From assembly GCF_003019035.1 (NCBI RefSeq), contig NZ_CP027447.1: DNA of 64,000 nt. The stretch is one strand, 5' to 3'. The stretch's first letter is position 1, and each line of letters starts with the position of its first letter. The stretch comes from Escherichia coli (lineage in GTDB: Bacteria > Pseudomonadota > Gammaproteobacteria > Enterobacterales > Enterobacteriaceae). A model generated the notes under the pieces. The model saw only the letters and a list, made by a program, of their open reading frames with translations, ran no database searches and was not told the DNA's origin. The position numbers and the translations under genes were made by a program. Positions 1-7,077 of the stretch are shown in pieces.

Positions 1-1009
1 ACCAGACGGAATCCCCTGCTGTTATCGCGGGAATGGAAGTCAGCGCTTTAAGCAGTAGTGGATGCCATTTCTCTGAAATGGGCAGAACTTTGCCAGGTGC
101 AACCCCGCACAGTTCATCGTCCGGTACGTCATCCAGCAGCGGGCGCAATAAAACATACGCCATCGCTTCCGGGATAGGCACCACATGTAACAATCCCTGA
201 CCCGATAACATATCAGAGAGCGCCGTCCAGCCTTGAAACGTGCGGAACACCGAACATTTTGTAGTGTTATCTACCGTGTACTCTTCGACATCGGTCCGGT
301 GTGCAGCATCCCAGGGATCGTAATCATCGAAATTACCATTAAACACATTGGCAAAAACGCGCTGATAAGCGGGTAATAACCACCGTTCCAGCGCACCAGA
401 ATCGGTATGCGCGCCCAGGCCTTTAGTTGTAGTACCTGGAGGGCGGCGGCGGATCCTGTCTGGATAAATCACACTGATATCAGGATTAAACCACTGTTTG
501 CCGTTGCTTTCAGACGTCCACAGTCGGTTTAGAAAAGATTGCACAGCAGCCATGTTTTCGCTCTGCCGCGCCTGCATCTGTGCTTGCGACCAGTAAATGG
601 GATAGATTTCGGGGCGAGAAGCCTCCAGCGAGCCGAAAAAACTGTCGCCAGGGCCTTTATAAACATCATCAAAATGATTGATATCAAGATAATCGAGCAT
701 GGCACGATCCCACGCCATCGCCTGCTCGCGAGGGAAATGGCCTTTTATGACTGCACAGCCGCGACGTTTAATTTCATTGCGAGTGGCATCGCTTACTGTA
801 CCTGCGGCAATATCACTATAAGAAACTTCCGGCCAAACCGGCAGCCCTTGCGCTTTTAGGGCATCGATTTCAGCAACACGCGTTTCGATTTTTGCAGAGA
901 GTGTATCGAAAACCTGTTGCACATCACTGAGCTGTTCCCGCAGCGCAGCTTTCATCTCTCGGATAGCCGCTTTCGCATCTGTGGGCAGCGTCTCACAGGA
1001 AAAAGTCAT
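1..1009 (-). CDS. ybiU: DUF1479-family protein YbiU, N-terminal part (gene runs off window start)
   Basis: Minus-strand ATG at 1009..1007 preceded by a GAGG RBS; reading frame stays open to position 1. Translation begins MTFSCETLPTDAKAAIREMKAALREQ and matches the recalled E. coli YbiU. Absent from the ORF track because no stop lies in the window. Confidence 0.65.
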   Translation of the reverse strand, partial: MTFSCETLPTDAKAAIREMKAALREQLSDVQQVFDTLSAKIETRVAEIDALKAQGLPVWPEVSYSDIAAGTVSDATRNEIKRRGCAVIKGHFPREQAMAWDRAMLDYLDINHFDDVYKGPGDSFFGSLEASRPEIYPIYWSQAQMQARQSENMAAVQSFLNRLWTSESNGKQWFNPDISVIYPDRIRRRPPGTTTKGLGAHTDSGALERWLLPAYQRVFANVFNGNFDDYDPWDAAHRTDVEEYTVDNTTKCSVFRTFQGWTALSDMLSGQGLLHVVPIPEAMAYVLLRPLLDDVPDDELCGVAPGKVLPISEKWHPLLLKALTSIPAITAGDSVW

Positions 1010-1022
1010 ATCAACCTCGATT

Positions 1023-1036
1023 CTTTCATTCGAAAG
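1023..1036. promoter_or_regulatory. Palindromic 14-bp motif CTTTC-N4-GAAAG (copy 1 of 3) just upstream of ybiU start
   Basis: Sequence ctttcattcgaaag read directly; it is the reverse complement of the copies at 2046..2059 and 5494..5507. Confidence 0.4.
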
Positions 1037-1160
1037 TAAAATGATTACGATTGATACATTAAGTTAAAAATAAGTTAACGCAAGATAAAAATCTTGAGTC
1101 AGTGCACAAAGCGAGCAAAAAGGAGAGAGGCCGAAGTGGTCACTTCGGCCAGGGGGAAGA

Positions 1161-1976
1161 TCAACTATTGAAAGGAGCGATATTATCCAGCACAGCCTGA
1201 ATCACGTTCAGCGCGCCTTCATGATTATTATCATCGGTAGCATAACGGGCGATTTGTTTAATGTTTTCCGCAGCATTGCCCATCGCAAAGGAATAACGCG
1301 CCATTTTCAGCATCTCCGCATCGTTACCGCTGTCGCCAATCGCTACCACATTTTGCGGTGACAGATCCCAGCGTTTCAGTAACCGCGAAATACCGTTTGC
1401 TTTATGTAGACCGGGAATAATCAGGTCGATAAAGCCAAAACCACTGGTGACGGGTTTCATAATGCCATCCAGCGCTATGTGCAGTTTGTCGATCACTAAC
1501 GGGATTTGTTCATCCGGCAGGTTGAGCGAAAACTTGAACAGTACGTCGTCAATCTCCTGATAATCTTTTACAGGTTTCAGGCGATGGTAGTGTTTTGCCA
1601 TCAGTGCGACGAATGCTTCGGGGGCATTTTCGCTGACATATGCACTTTGCAGACCGCAGGCGACAAAATTGAGTTGCTTATCTTTTAGCAACTCGCCAAT
1701 AACAATCCGCGATTCATGTCGGGTCAGTTCGCCGTGGAACAACTGCTTGCCATGTTCGTAAACCAGTGCGCCGTTTTCCGCGACAAAAGAGATCTCATCC
1801 TTTAGCTCAGGAAAGAACGAAATAAGCTGGTAATACTGATTACCGCTGGCGACAACGAACTCAATGCCGCGCTTTTTCAGTTCCTGATATTGCGCCATAA
1901 AACGTGGTTGGTTGTACGTTTTGGCGTCGTTAAGAAAAGTACCGTCCATGTCTGTGACGATAACTTTTACGCTCAT
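1161..1976 (-). CDS. ybiV: HAD-superfamily sugar phosphatase (Cof-like)
   Basis: 271-aa ORF; N-terminal DMDGT motif (VTDMDGTFL) and C-terminal GDSGNDAEM are HAD hallmarks; sequence matches recalled E. coli YbiV. Confidence 0.93.
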
Positions 1977-2045
1977 AGGTGTGCTCCTGGCTCGAAAATG
2001 AAACCGTAACAGTGTAATAACAATGTGACGCAGAGCACAAATTAT

Positions 2046-2059
2046 ATTTCGAATGAAAG
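2046..2059. promoter_or_regulatory. Palindromic motif aTTTCGAATGAAAG (copy 2 of 3) in ybiV promoter / ybiW downstream region
   Basis: Sequence atttcgaatgaaag read directly, 13/14 identical to copy 3. Confidence 0.4.
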
Positions 2060-2121
2060 CGAGGCTGAAATTGATGATGTGAATGATTTAGCCCGGCGAC
2101 GACGACGCCGGGCTGAGGAGA

Positions 2122-4554
2122 TTACAGCATATGTTCAGTACGGGCGATGATATCGTCCTGAGCGTCTGGAGAGAGCGCGGTGAAGAAGGCGGAATAGCCC
2201 GCGACACGCACTACCAGATCGCGGTACTGATCCGGATGTTTTTTCGCTTCCAGCAGCGTTTCGCGGGAAACGATGTTGTACTGAATATGCCAGCCTTTAT
2301 GCACTTCAAAGAAGGTGCGTAGCAGGATCATCAGTTTCTGCTTGTCAGATTCGTTCTCCAGCGTTGCCGGATTCAGTTTCTGGTTGAGCAACACGCCGCC
2401 GAGAATCGCGGCCGTAGGCAGTTTACCCACCGAGCCAATGACCGCAGTAGGGCCAAGATGATCAGTACCGGAGGCCGGACTAGCGCCTTCTGCCAGCGGG
2501 GTATGCGCTTTACGTCCGTCCGGCGTTGCCATCGTCTGCGCGCCAAAGGGTACGTTAGCGGAGATAGATGACGTACCCGCGTAATAATTGCCGCCAACCG
2601 GACCACGACCATAGCGCGGGTTATGGTACTGTTTTAGTTCGTCGATATAGGTCTGATAAGCGCGAGCCAGCAGCGTATCGACAGTATCATCGTCGTTGCC
2701 GTACTTAGGCGCACCGTTAATCAGCCGCTGACGCAGCTGCTCGTGAGTCAGGCCGTCGAAGTCATCCGCCAGTGCGGCAGCCAGCTGTTGCTGACCAATC
2801 GCGCCCTGTTCAAATACCAGTTTCTTCACTGCCGCCAGGCTGTTGCCGAGGTTAGCAATGCCGACCTGCAGGCCAGAAACCCAGTCATATTTCGCGCCGC
2901 CTTGCTTGATACTTTTCGCTCGCTCAATACAGTCATCCACCAGCGCCGAGCAGAGAATATCGTGTACGTTCTCTTCCAGCATGGTGTCGACGACATATTC
3001 GATTTCGATTGATTTACGCGTGTAGTAACGGATTTGCGTATCCCATGCGTCCATTACTTCATCGAAGTTGTTGAAGTTACCCGCTGACAACGCTTTTTCT
3101 TGTGGCAGGAACACTTTGCCGCTGGTGGCATCACGACCGCCTTCCAGCGCCGCCAGCATCACGCGGGCGAAGTTGATAAAGCTCATGCCGGTACAGCGAT
3201 AGCCCCATTTGCCACCGACGGCGGTTTCGATACAACCAATCGCTGCGTAGTCGTAAGCGTCCTGCGGTTCAATACCGAGTTTAATAAATTCCGGGATGAC
3301 GATTTCATCGTTGTTGAACGCCGGCATCCCGAAACCACAGCGGATCACCTGAACACAGGCATCGAGGAAATCGTTACTCATACCCGCGTGGTAGCGCACG
3401 CTGAGGTTAGGCTGAGTGGAACGCAGGCGACCGCAAGATTCGAGGATCGCATAAGAGAGTGGATTTACCGCGTCCATCGGTTGACCATCAACCAGATTTT
3501 GCCCGCCAATGGTGACGTTCTGATACAGCGGACTTCCCGCAGAGGCTTTTGAGTGTGAGCCGGAGCGGATTTTGTTCACTTCCAGCAATTTCAACCAGCA
3601 GCTATGCAGCATCTCGATGGCGTGTTCGCGATCCAGTGTCTGGTTCAGTTCAACGTCGCGGCGATAGTAAGGGTAGAGATACTGGTCCATACGACCAAAC
3701 GATACCGAGTGACCGTTAGATTCGATCTGCAAAATCAACTGGATGAAGTAACACAGTTGCAGCGCCTGCCAGAAAGTCTGCGGCGGCTGGTGGGCGATAA
3801 GATCGCAGTTTTCTGCTATCGCCAGCAGTTCATCGCGACGGCTTTCGCGGGTTTCAGTGGCTGCCATTTCACGCGCCAGGGCAGCGAAACGTTCAATGTG
3901 TTCACTGACTGCCACCAGCACGATATCAATCGCTTTCAGGAACTGCTCGCCGTGCAAATCTTCCAGCACCGTCAGGTTGATGCGCGAGCGACGTTCCGCT
4001 ACTTTCTCGCGCAGACCATCAAGACCTTTTTCCAGCAGTAGCGGGAAATTGACCGCCAGGTGCGCATCGCCGGAGGTCATATTGCCCTCCGCTTTAATGA
4101 TGCCGGTCGCCAGCAGACCTTTTTGCTCATCGGTAAACATGCCGTAGCAGCGATCCTGTACGGTCTGACCGCGCCACCACGGGCACACTTCATGCAGAAC
4201 GCGTTTGTTCTCTTCGCTCACCGCAAAACCAGCACCGGGACGATCTGCCAGATCATCAATCTCTTTTTCGATCCATGAGACGGTATATTCCGGGAAGATC
4301 GGCGCGGCGCGAACTTCGCTTGCCTGGTTGCCAATGATCAATTCATCGTGCTTGATCCAGATGGTGCGATTCGCCAGGTGATGCGCCAGTGCCAGCGCGC
4401 GACGTACCGGGATCGGCTTATCGAGATGTTGTTGATACATCCCGGTATAGTGCTGCGCGCGCTCGGTACAAACCGGCGGTTTCACAATATGCACCAGCGC
4501 ATTTTTGTGCGCTTTAATGCGGTCGCTGAGCGTGTCCAGTTTCAGTGTGGTCAT
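2122..4554 (-). CDS. ybiW: Glycyl-radical enzyme, pyruvate formate-lyase-like
   Basis: 810-aa ORF; PFL-family length and C-terminal glycyl-radical region (RVAGYSAFF); matches recalled E. coli YbiW. Confidence 0.92.
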   Translation of the reverse strand: MTTLKLDTLSDRIKAHKNALVHIVKPPVCTERAQHYTGMYQQHLDKPIPVRRALALAHHLANRTIWIKHDELIIGNQASEVRAAPIFPEYTVSWIEKEIDDLADRPGAGFAVSEENKRVLHEVCPWWRGQTVQDRCYGMFTDEQKGLLATGIIKAEGNMTSGDAHLAVNFPLLLEKGLDGLREKVAERRSRINLTVLEDLHGEQFLKAIDIVLVAVSEHIERFAALAREMAATETRESRRDELLAIAENCDLIAHQPPQTFWQALQLCYFIQLILQIESNGHSVSFGRMDQYLYPYYRRDVELNQTLDREHAIEMLHSCWLKLLEVNKIRSGSHSKASAGSPLYQNVTIGGQNLVDGQPMDAVNPLSYAILESCGRLRSTQPNLSVRYHAGMSNDFLDACVQVIRCGFGMPAFNNDEIVIPEFIKLGIEPQDAYDYAAIGCIETAVGGKWGYRCTGMSFINFARVMLAALEGGRDATSGKVFLPQEKALSAGNFNNFDEVMDAWDTQIRYYTRKSIEIEYVVDTMLEENVHDILCSALVDDCIERAKSIKQGGAKYDWVSGLQVGIANLGNSLAAVKKLVFEQGAIGQQQLAAALADDFDGLTHEQLRQRLINGAPKYGNDDDTVDTLLARAYQTYIDELKQYHNPRYGRGPVGGNYYAGTSSISANVPFGAQTMATPDGRKAHTPLAEGASPASGTDHLGPTAVIGSVGKLPTAAILGGVLLNQKLNPATLENESDKQKLMILLRTFFEVHKGWHIQYNIVSRETLLEAKKHPDQYRDLVVRVAGYSAFFTALSPDAQDDIIARTEHML

Positions 4555-4559
4555 GGTTG

Positions 4560-5459
4560 TTATCCTCGTAAGGTCGCGGTTAACCCTTTCTGGCAGGCAT
4601 ACTGCTGGGCAAAGTCGAGCAGTTCTGGCGCATCAAGCGGTTTTTCCGGGGCGTCATAGGGCAGATTAAGTAAGTGATATTTGTTGATGCCTAGCGTGTG
4701 GTAGGGCAGGAAATGGATTTCGCCAACGTGCAGCTCGTCGGCGGCAAAATCGGTAATGGCTTTTACAGCGGTTTCGTCGGCATTAAAGCCCTGAATCAGC
4801 GGTACGCGGATGATGATTTTTTTCCCCGCCGCAGCGAGTTTTTTCAGATTATCCAGCACCCTGGCGGCGTTACCGTCGGTCCACTGTTTAAACGGCGCGT
4901 CGGCGACGTGTTTTAAATCGGCAAGAAACAGATCGATATAGGGCAGAGAAGGGGAGATATATTTCCACGGCACATGCAGACAGGTTTCTACCGCAGTATG
5001 AATGCCGGCCTCGTGGCTGGCTTGCAGTAGCGCCGTCGCCATTTCCGGCTGCATAAACGGTTCACCGCCAGAAAGTGTTAAGCCGCCGCCGCTGCGATCG
5101 TAAAACGGTTTATCGCGCAAAACGGTTGCCATGATCTCCTCAACGCTTTTCACTTCACCACACACGGTTAACGCCTGTGTCGGGCAGCAGTCGGTTAGCG
5201 CCGTCAGATGCTCCGGGGTTAACTTTTCCCGATGAATAAGCAAGCCATTCAGCGCGCGCTCAATCACGTCCGGCGCGGCCTTAGCGCACAGCTCGCAGCC
5301 TTCCAGACACAGTCGTGCGTCATACAACAGATCCTGCGTGCGGGCGCGGCTTTCCGGGTTCTGACACCAGCGGCAGCCCAGCGAACAGCCTTTAAGAAAT
5401 ACGACCGTGCGGATACCGGGGCCATCATGGGTCGAGTAGCGCTGAATATTGAAAATCAT
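4560..5459 (-). CDS. ybiY: Glycyl-radical enzyme activating protein (radical SAM)
   Basis: 299-aa ORF with cysteine clusters ([19 protein letters not shown]) typical of PFL activases; sits immediately upstream of ybiW on the same strand. Confidence 0.9.
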
Positions 5460-5493
5460 AGTTGCCTCTCCGTTTCGTTCAAATATTAAAATA

Positions 5494-5507
5494 CTTTCGA
5501 ATGAAAG
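5494..5507. promoter_or_regulatory. Palindromic motif CTTTCGAATGAAAG (copy 3 of 3) in the divergent ybiY / fsaA promoter region
   Basis: Sequence ctttcgaatgaaag read directly; 35 bp upstream of the ybiY ATG and 83 bp upstream of the fsaA ATG. Confidence 0.4.
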
Positions 5508-5589
5508 TTAGATTGATGTGCGTCAACTGTTCAGAGAGTTTTCCCGTGATAGTCTACATTCAGACAAAAAGTACATTTTGAGGATGGTT

Positions 5590-6252
5590 ATGGAACTGTA
5601 TCTGGATACTTCAGACGTTGTTGCGGTGAAGGCGCTGTCACGTATTTTTCCGCTGGCGGGTGTGACCACTAACCCAAGCATTATCGCCGCGGGTAAAAAA
5701 CCGCTGGAGGTTGTGCTTCCGCAACTTCACGAGGCGATGGGCGGTCAGGGGCGTCTGTTTGCCCAGGTAATGGCTACCACTGCCGAAGGGATGGTGAATG
5801 ACGCGCTTAAGCTGCGTTCTATTATTGCGGATATCGTGGTGAAAGTTCCGGTGACCGCCGAGGGGCTGGCAGCGATTAAGATGTTAAAAGCGGAAGGGAT
5901 TCCGACGCTGGGAACCGCGGTATATGGCGCGGCACAAGGGTTGATGTCGGCGCTGGCAGGTGCAGAATATGTTGCGCCTTACGTTAATCGTATTGATGCT
6001 CAGGGCGGTAGCGGTATTCAGACTGTGACCGACTTACACCAGTTATTGAAAATGCATGCGCCGCAGGCGAAAGTGCTGGCAGCGAGTTTCAAAACCCCGC
6101 GTCAGGCGCTGGACTGCTTACTGGCAGGATGTGAATCAATTACTCTGCCACTGGATGTGGCACAACAGATGATTAGCTATCCGGCGGTTGATGCCGCTGT
6201 GGCGAAGTTTGAGCAGGACTGGCAGGGAGCGTTTGGCAGAACGTCGATTTAA
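5590..6252 (+). CDS. fsaA: Fructose-6-phosphate aldolase 1
   Basis: Start chosen at MELYLDTSD (ATG 5590) to give 220 aa; transaldolase-like fold; matches recalled FsaA. Confidence 0.92.
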
Positions 6253-6330
6253 CCGGACGTTCTGCATCCTCATAAATTGCTGATGACGTGGCGGAGTGTC
6301 GCGTCTTATCTGGCCTGGAGGTGGCAGTTA

Positions 6331-7077
6331 CTACCCGCACACCTCACACCCCGGATTACGCATCAGTTTCATTTCGCGAAACTGACAGGTCATCGCATCG
6401 TACATCACGATTTTTCCGCTGGCCGGTTTGCCATAACCTGCCAGCAGTTTGATCGCTTCCATTGCCTGCAACGAACCAATTACGCCGATCAACGGTGCCA
6501 TCACGCCTGCTTCTACGCAGGTTAACGCGTTCTCGCCAAACAAACGGCTAAGGCAGCGATAGCACGGTTCGCCGTCCTGATAAGTGAAGACCGTGATTTG
6601 CCCTTCCATACGAATTGCCGCGCCGGAAACCAGCGGCACCTTCGCGGCAAAACAGCCTGCGTTCAGTTGATTACGTACTGCAACGTTATCCGTACAGTCG
6701 AGCACCAGATCGTGTTTTGCAATCATCGCAGCAAGTTCAGCGTCATCAAGCAGCGCATTGACTGGCGTAATCGCGATATGTGGGTTGATCCGCGTCAGGG
6801 CGTCACGGGCGGATTCCACCTTCGGTTGCCCGACCGTGGCATCACTGTGCAGCGTCTGGCGTTGCAGATTGGAGAGCGAAACCGTGTCGAAGTCGAGCAG
6901 CGTCAGGTTGCCGACACCGGCGCTTGCCAGATACTGCGAAGCTGCGCAGCCGAGTCCACCAAGGCCGACGACCAGCACGCGGGAATCTTTCAATGCTTCC
7001 TGACCGTCAAAATCAAAACCGCGCAGAATGATTTGCCGGTTGTAGCGCAGCATCTCCTGATCGCTGAGTTCCGCCAT
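6331..7077 (-). CDS. moeB: Molybdopterin-synthase adenylyltransferase
   Basis: 248-aa ORF; ThiF/MoeB dinucleotide-binding motif VLVVGLGGLG and C-terminal CxxC pairs. Confidence 0.93.
   Translation of the reverse strand: MAELSDQEMLRYNRQIILRGFDFDGQEALKDSRVLVVGLGGLGCAASQYLASAGVGNLTLLDFDTVSLSNLQRQTLHSDATVGQPKVESARDALTRINPHIAITPVNALLDDAELAAMIAKHDLVLDCTDNVAVRNQLNAGCFAAKVPLVSGAAIRMEGQITVFTYQDGEPCYRCLSRLFGENALTCVEAGVMAPLIGVIGSLQAMEAIKLLAGYGKPASGKIVMYDAMTCQFREMKLMRNPGCEVCG

Follow-up and report, generated by a model that had tools for sequence, protein, structure and literature searches.

The ybi cluster of Escherichia coli (ybiU, ybiV, ybiYW and fsaA) carries a short palindrome in three regulatory regions, which raises the question of whether these copies are the operators of one transcription factor and, if so, of which. 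In the 64-kb window (the whole stretch of 64,000 nucleotides that was analysed), a search with the exact 14-mer pattern CTTTCNNNNGAAAG returned two sites only, at 1023-1036, where the match reads CTTTCATTCGAAAG, and at 5494-5507, where it reads CTTTCGAATGAAAG. The site at 2046-2059 is ATTTCGAATGAAAG; it starts with A and carries a single mismatch, in the outermost arm base. The threefold motif claimed by the sequence-only reading thus stood as an exact 14-mer at two sites and failed by one base at the third, whereas the 13-mer TTTCGAATGAAAG is exact at all three, at 1023-1035 (minus strand), 2047-2059 (plus strand) and 5495-5507 (plus strand). No further copy of TTTCGAATGAAAG, either exact or with one mismatch, was found in the window. 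Strain K-12 carries the same three 13-mers, and its site 1 is flanked by G, not C (GTTTC...), indicating that what is conserved is not a pair of perfect 5-bp arms. Relative to the genes, the sites lie where that reading had put them, with site 1 before ybiU, site 2 before ybiV and site 3 in the ybiY/fsaA intergenic region.

The recurrence could be a matter of chance or of a dispersed repeat (REP/BIME, ERIC or similar), in favour of which nothing but the shortness of the motif can be cited. CTTTC-N4-GAAAG is expected by chance 0.06 times per 64 kb, at least two matches were reached in 0 of 100 shuffles, and about 0.002 copies of the exact 13-mer are expected in 64 kb against the three observed, which bears out the earlier claim of a non-random recurrence. 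The likeness among the boxes ends at about 14-17 bp. Furthermore, in a comparative set of 80 Enterobacterales loci, the three boxes lie at syntenic positions in most loci while their flanks diverge, and orthologous positions fixed across genera in diverging flanks are the opposite of what a mobile repeat would give. Chance or a dispersed repeat is effectively refuted by the window statistics together with the cross-genus conservation, and we give it next to no probability.

The CTTTC-N4-GAAAG arrangement of the 14-mer matches neither the FNR-type pattern TTGAT-N4-ATCAA nor the CRP-type pattern TGTGA-N6-TCACA. We propose instead that the three boxes are operators of YciT, a DeoR-family repressor of the ybi cluster, and consider this very probable; the earlier judgement that the motif belongs to none of CRP, FNR, Cra and NagC was right. 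Pfam places HTH_DeoR (PF08220, E = 1.4e-15) in the N-terminal part of YciT and the sugar-phosphate sensor domain DeoRC (PF00455, E = 7.7e-47) in the C-terminal part. Two studies have defined the regulon of YciT (DeoT, b1284) in K-12, one with ChIP-exo (Gao et al. 2021, PMC8464067), the other with Reg-Seq (bioRxiv 10.1101/2025.05.13.653802). Two YciT ChIP-exo peaks, with S/N of 24 and 45, are reported in the ybi cluster (Gao et al. 2021, PMC8464067). Deletion of yciT is reported to de-repress the five cluster genes 3- to 200-fold (PMC8464067), with log2 fold changes of +7.7 for ybiY, +7.0 for ybiU, +3.5 for ybiW, +2.2 for ybiV and +1.8 for fsaA (Dataset S6, PMC8464067), and the same five genes are given as repressed by YciT in Supplementary Fig. 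S17 of PMC8464067. In the Reg-Seq study, YciT was enriched on a ybiYp bait by DNA chromatography and mass spectrometry, and its site was assigned to the RNA polymerase footprint, at a distance of about 100 bp from the peak of Gao et al. (bioRxiv 10.1101/2025.05.13.653802); this placement matches the box at 5494-5507. According to the same source, RegulonDB reportedly annotates YciT as an activator (bioRxiv 10.1101/2025.05.13.653802). Neither a footprint nor a gel shift of the 14-mer with purified YciT was found in the literature.

The YciT motif has been described as palindromic (Gao et al. 2021, PMC8464067). The published K-12 YciT peak list, with 19 mapped peaks outside the cluster, was used for a genome-wide comparison. 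TTTC-N4-GAAA with at most one arm mismatch lies 1-12 bp from the peak centre in 12 of these 19 peaks, the chance expectation being about 0.01 per peak, and the three ybi boxes are perfect matches to it. Judging from the peak sequences, the boxes would be identical with the motif published by Gao et al. YciT would recognise yTTTC-N4-GAAAr, the best copies of which would be those of the ybi cluster, with the sequence TTTCGAATGAAAG. The shared operator that the sequence-only reading had proposed for ybiU, ybiV, ybiYW and fsaA, with the factor left unnamed, is hence substantiated by the published ChIP-exo peaks, the de-repression of five genes on yciT deletion and the ybiYp DNA-affinity mass spectrometry, as well as by the motif under YciT peaks elsewhere in K-12 and the conservation of the boxes across Enterobacterales.

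The cluster peaks in the published ChIP-exo table miss the boxes, with offsets of +164 bp (site 1) and +111 bp (site 3), and the table lists no peak at site 2. These offsets could mean that the boxes belong to a different regulator, either a DeoR-family paralogue or another factor, and that the effects of YciT are either indirect or due to other sites close by; weak YciT peaks in the published list at the deo and ula regions could be read in the same way. However, the centring of the twelve other peaks on TTTC-N4-GAAA and the specific enrichment of YciT on the ybiY core-promoter bait of the Reg-Seq study argue against a different regulator, and no motif-like sequence was found when looked for under the two displaced peaks. 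In addition, a yciT homologue (58-78% identity) adjoins ybiW or ybiU in 13 of the 80 loci, all of them distant, and most of these 13 retain the box upstream of ybiY. We therefore regard a different regulator as improbable, and the published table likely has a coordinate problem for the ybi cluster.

The deo and ula operons, in whose regulatory regions the weak YciT peaks are listed, are under other DeoR-family regulators, which hints at overlapping specificities. With up to three mismatches allowed in K-12, nothing above chance was found at the promoter of yciT, leaving autoregulation in E. coli unsupported, and the promoters of the paralogous pflD/frw/fsaB/gldA locus were likewise at chance level, leaving control of the anhydromannitol pathway unsupported.

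A scan for sigma-70 consensus promoters returned nothing convincing at the three regions, which would fit activator-dependent or weak promoters; promoter elements were therefore taken from conservation. Operator 1 (1023..1036, minus strand), identified by sequence and conservation, reads CTTTCGAATGAAAG on the ybiU strand. It lies 13 nt upstream of the ybiU ATG, directly 5' of a GAGG Shine-Dalgarno sequence, and 50 of the ybiU-carrying loci keep it there. An intrinsic terminator-like hairpin lies after ybiV at 1129..1150 (minus strand), implying a separate promoter for ybiU located between this hairpin and operator 1, and a conserved promoter-like block, TTGCAT...TAAAGT, is present upstream of operator 1. 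With the operator shortly after the likely start site and beside the ribosome-binding site, bound YciT may block initiation or clearance.

Operator 1 is probably transcribed, and its arms could pair; the palindrome might thus act as an RNA hairpin, with a 5-bp stem and a 4-nt loop, that affects translation or stability from the 5' leaders. Such a stem would be A/U-rich and weak, and an Rfam scan of 1-7000 gave no match at E <= 1. The four central nucleotides, which would form the loop, are conserved as strongly as the arms. Furthermore, the same motif lies under protein ChIP peaks at many unrelated places, some of them inside genes, and the ybiY copy is upstream of the inferred -10 hexamer and so is probably untranscribed. 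An RNA hairpin is accordingly a very remote prospect, and the boxes are treated below as YciT operators.

Operator 2 (2046..2059, plus strand; ATTTCGAATGAAAG), likewise assigned by sequence and conservation, lies about 70 nt before the ybiV ATG and is closely followed by a conserved promoter-like block, TTTGTGC...TCACATTGT...TAGAAT. The operator is retained in about 50 loci, among which its central GAAT/ATTC occurs in both orientations. At both ybiV and fsaA the operator would stand upstream of the core promoter, a placement that would fit the weaker de-repression of these genes.

Operator 3 (5494..5507, plus strand; sequence and conservation), in the divergent ybiYW/fsaA region, lies 35-48 nt upstream of the ybiY ATG, and its arms are perfect in 71 of the 80 loci. 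It is flanked by an FNR-type box at 5510..5523, read from the sequence as TTGATgtgcGTCAA (TTGACgcacATCAA on the ybiY strand) and 5 bp from the operator, and by a -10-like hexamer. The latter, TTTAAT on the ybiY strand (5484..5489, minus strand), is the putative -10 element of the ybiY promoter, taken from conserved spacing. The FNR-type box has at most one mismatch to TTGAT-N4-ATCAA in 60 of the 80 loci and keeps a fixed 19-bp register with operator 3 in 75 of the 80. If this box is centred at -41.5, operator 3 would extend from about -29 to about -16. Anaerobic activation of ybiYp has been reported, together with the footprint of an activator close to the YciT site on its upstream side (Reg-Seq, bioRxiv 10.1101/2025.05.13.653802), for which the authors state that no candidate was found (bioRxiv 10.1101/2025.05.13.653802). 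No report of FNR binding at ybiYp was found in the literature searched, including FNR ChIP data for ybiY/ybiW. With operator 3 in the spacer that separates the -10 hexamer from the FNR-type box, bound YciT would occlude RNA polymerase, and the placement of the box suggests promoter occlusion as the mode of repression on an anaerobically activated promoter.

Considering the cluster as a whole, the inducer of YciT would probably be one of the phosphorylated intermediates of the pathway, for example 1,5-anhydroglucitol-6-phosphate, since YbiW cleaves this compound and DeoR-family regulators typically respond to sugar phosphates, which their sensors bind. YbiW has been described as a glycyl radical enzyme with this cleavage activity (Ma et al. 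2024, as summarised in PMC12441222). No paper linking YciT to anhydroglucitol was found in the literature searched. We tentatively suggest the following combined scenario, to which we give somewhat less than an even chance. YciT may be a dedicated anhydroglucitol sensor-repressor, released by 1,5-anhydroglucitol-6-phosphate or by the product 1-deoxyfructose-6-phosphate. With FNR bound at a distance of 5 bp, YciT may form an AND gate on ybiYW that demands both the absence of oxygen and the presence of substrate. YbiU, a DUF1479 protein, and YbiV, a phosphatase, may both act in the same radical-mediated anhydroglucitol pathway, and yciT may ancestrally have belonged to the ybiYW operon. None of these links (the inducer, the FNR AND gate, the place of YbiU and YbiV, and the ancestral operon) is stated in the literature searched.

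The operator accounts for the silencing, in E. coli and its relatives, of an oxygen-sensitive glycyl-radical sugar pathway until it is needed, in which YbiW/YbiY cleave 1,5-anhydroglucitol-6-phosphate and FsaA splits the product. The palindrome is an ordinary, already known operator, mapped here more precisely than in print; since the regulator and the regulon have been published, the finding itself adds little. The operator positions, the FNR-type box and the yciT-ybiYW linkage are of practical use in a search for the inducer and in working out what YbiU and YbiV do.

The published YciT regulon of Gao et al. and the Reg-Seq study shares with the ybi-cluster boxes the same genes, the same regulator and the same direction, namely repression. 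It differs in that two cluster peaks lying 111-164 bp off the boxes are published, whereas three exact operators, one per promoter, were mapped here. Neither the three-box layout and its cross-genus conservation nor the adjacent FNR-type box and the yciT-ybiYW linkage in other genera was found in the text of these two papers. The ybiY promoter also resembles class II FNR-activated promoters with a pathway-specific repressor, both in having a TTGAT-N4-ATCAA-type box at -41.5 spacing from a -10-like hexamer and in the anaerobic activation at ybiYp reported by Reg-Seq. It differs from them in that FNR is a candidate activator at ybiYp. DeoR of E. coli belongs to the same regulator family as YciT (HTH_DeoR plus DeoRC) and has three deo operators, O1, O2 and OE; both its cooperative looping and its oligomeric state are known. 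The operators of either regulator are palindromes of about 14-16 bp, several copies of which are distributed across 1-4 kb around the genes under control, and cooperative binding or looping among the three ybi operators is possible. However, the operator sequences of DeoR and YciT differ, and the DeoR operators all serve one operon, whereas in the ybi cluster there is one operator for each separate promoter.

The window derives from the E. coli chromosome and carries ybiU (partial, ATG at 1007-1009), ybiV (1161-1976), ybiW (2122-4554) and ybiY (4560-5459) on the minus strand, and fsaA (5590-6252) on the plus strand. The sequence-only reading placed an exact CTTTC-N4-GAAAG palindrome in three promoter regions of this cluster. 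A pattern search of the 64-kb window returned exact matches at 1023-1036 (operator 1, ybiU) and 5494-5507 (operator 3, between the divergent ybiY and fsaA), but operator 2 (ybiV, 2046-2059, ATTTCGAATGAAAG) is mismatched at the outermost arm base. The 13-mer TTTCGAATGAAAG is exact at all three (1023-1035, minus strand; 2047-2059 and 5495-5507, plus strand), and the 64-kb window contains no further copies with 0 or 1 mismatch. Since approximately 0.06 matches to CTTTC-N4-GAAAG are expected by chance per 64 kb, at least two occurred in 0 of 100 shuffles, and the three 13-mers are also present in K-12 MG1655 (where a G flanks site 1), the recurrence is genuine and well beyond chance; only its stated exactness needs a small correction.

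Gao et al. (2021; PMC8464067) reported 49 ChIP-exo sites of the repressor YciT (b1284), the strongest of which include one assigned to ybiV (S/N 24) and one to ybiY (S/N 45). In their RNA-seq, yciT deletion changed expression (log2 fold change) of ybiY by +7.7, ybiU by +7.0, ybiW by +3.5, ybiV by +2.2 and fsaA by +1.8, and repression of these genes by YciT is stated in their Supplementary Fig. S17. In the Reg-Seq preprint (10.1101/2025.05.13.653802), the ybiY promoter (ybiYp), active only under anaerobic conditions, enriched YciT as bait in DNA chromatography with mass spectrometry, and the YciT site lies inside the polymerase footprint, about 100 bases from the peak of Gao et al. The link between YciT and these promoters is already in both papers. 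YciT has HTH_DeoR and DeoRC domains.

K-12 sequence was taken around 19 of the 49 published peaks, with coordinates converted from NC_000913.2 to NC_000913.3, and matches to TTTC-N4-GAAA with at most one arm mismatch were recorded. The midpoint of the motif lay 1-12 bp from the centre of the peak in 12 of the 19 (ybiO, dmsA, ychE/oppA, pdeR, lrhA, yfcV, sixA, yhgE, rdcA, bsmA, yjiT and yjjI/deoC), and within 2 bp in 11 of these. A match within ±12 bp would arise by chance at only approximately 0.01 per peak, which identifies this palindrome as the sequence that YciT recognises, with the ybi boxes as the best copies. Three results speak against an RNA hairpin: an Rfam scan of 1-7000 at E ≤ 1 gave no match, the copy at ybiY is probably not transcribed, and protein peaks overlie the motif in many contexts. 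The strongest published peak (S/N 69; K-12 yfcV-sixA intergenic region, L084 1184-1213) lies on ACTTTCCGAATGAAAGTTA, a copy of operator 3 with one additional C, which can be read as a spacer of 5 nt or as a single mismatch in an arm. Weak peaks in the yjjI-deoC (L090 1148-1178) and ulaG-ulaA (L095 4603-4653) intergenic regions of K-12 fall in deo and ula operon regulatory regions, which are under other DeoR-family repressors, and may be a sign of cross-recognition among paralogues; in addition, yjjI codes for a protein of the glycyl-radical type.

In contrast to the 12 peaks on the motif, the published pair in the ybi cluster lies off perfect operators, at +164 bp relative to site 1 and +111 bp relative to site 3 (NC_000913.3 859,232-859,265 and 863,650-863,677; 4233-4266 and 8651-8678 in the K-12 ybi locus, L001), with no motif-like sequence under either peak, and the published ChIP-exo table lists no peak at site 2. 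This displacement may stem from an error in peak calling or in the table. Operator 3 predicts just the discrepancy of about 100 bp remarked on by the Reg-Seq authors.

A protein-guided scan gave 80 ybiW loci from Escherichia, Citrobacter, Salmonella, Klebsiella, Raoultella, Enterobacter, Kosakonia, Buttiauxella, Serratia, Brenneria, Yersinia and others, with the 13-mer at three syntenic positions, mostly without mismatches, amid diverged flanks: 35-40 nt upstream of the ybiY start (perfect arms in 71/80 loci), approximately 70 nt upstream of ybiV and 13-18 nt upstream of ybiU. Distant genera have the variants TTTCGAAAGAAAG and TTTCAAACGAAAG, and both Yersinia loci among the 80 are without a box. 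The statistics and the conservation of the boxes at orthologous positions rule out both chance and a dispersed repeat. The central GAAT of the ybiV site occurs in either orientation, differing by genus, which fits a two-fold symmetric protein site. Tandem operators 21-22 bp (two helical turns) apart upstream of ybiY in Atlantibacter and Siccibacter (L049 6045-6079; L058 6047-6080) hint that two YciT dimers may bind cooperatively.

Furthermore, a yciT homologue (58-78% identity) immediately adjoins ybiW or ybiU in 13 distant loci of the set (Buttiauxella, Franconibacter, Serratia oryzae, Mixta, Prodigiosinella, Rouxiella, Brenneria, Affinibrenneria and two other Enterobacteriaceae), which is independent genomic evidence tying YciT to the cluster. 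Use of the boxes by another regulator is unlikely, given this adjacency and the motif-centred YciT peaks elsewhere. In Mixta theicola (L066), ybiU and then a yciT homologue lie beyond fsaA on its far side; because ybiU is preceded by two operator-like boxes (5122-5134 and 5208-5220), the two genes look like a single autoregulated unit in this genus. The ybiU alleles are sharply divergent inside E. coli: the N-terminal 336 aa of YbiU in the window (1-1009) and K-12 (L001 2797-4062) are only 82% identical, with 93-94% identity between K-12 and Citrobacter YbiU and 97-99% for YbiV and YbiW among E. coli strains, suggesting that ybiU and its leader may have been replaced by recombination.

We propose the following promoter arrangement, with start sites inferred throughout. 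On the ybiY strand, the conserved order is TTGAY-N4-ATCAA, 5 bp, CTTTCATTCGAAAG, 4 nt and TTTAAT. The near-consensus FNR-type box (TTGATgtgcGTCAA, 5510-5523), 5 bp from operator 3, has at most one mismatch to the FNR consensus in 60/80 loci and stays in a constant 19-bp register with the operator in 75/80. Taking TTTAAT as the -10 hexamer would centre the FNR-type box at -41.5, in class II geometry, and place the operator at about -29 to -16, so that bound YciT would exclude RNA polymerase at ybiY, in agreement with the 200-fold de-repression and the Reg-Seq footprints. These show one footprint, of a repressor, within the core promoter and another, of an activator, roughly 15 bp farther upstream (10.1101/2025.05.13.653802); the FNR-type box is a candidate for the latter. 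Because a terminator-like hairpin follows ybiV and a conserved TTGCAT...TAAAGT block lies approximately 20 nt upstream of the ybiU operator, this operator would fall shortly downstream of the start site and border the ribosome-binding site. Operator 2 precedes a conserved TTTGTGC...TCACATTGT...TAGAAT block and would thus lie upstream of the -35 region; fsaA shares operator 3, beyond the FNR-type box. An upstream operator position at ybiV and fsaA would fit the weaker de-repression of both. The conserved TTTGTGC-N6-TCACATTGT (2022-2043), adjoining operator 2, resembles a CRP site (TGTGA-N6-TCACA) but overlaps the predicted -35 region. DeoR-family sensors generally bind sugar phosphates. Cleavage of 1,5-anhydroglucitol-6-phosphate by the glycyl radical enzyme YbiW yields 1-deoxyfructose-6-phosphate (Ma et al., 2024, as cited in PMC12441222). 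From this substrate and product and the ligands of the family, we infer that the YciT inducer is likely a pathway intermediate.

YciT, its regulon and its palindromic motif are already published, and the sequence-only reading, which attributed the boxes to an unnamed factor with a shared operator joining the cluster in one regulon, was right, as borne out by the YciT peaks, the de-repression upon yciT deletion and the peak-centred palindrome. In the available portions of the literature, the exact three-operator map, the misplaced cluster peaks, the conserved partner box of FNR type, the linkage of yciT to ybiYW in other genera and the obvious anhydroglucitol pathway connection appear to be unstated. 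These additions refine the known YciT system, and none of them is new in kind.
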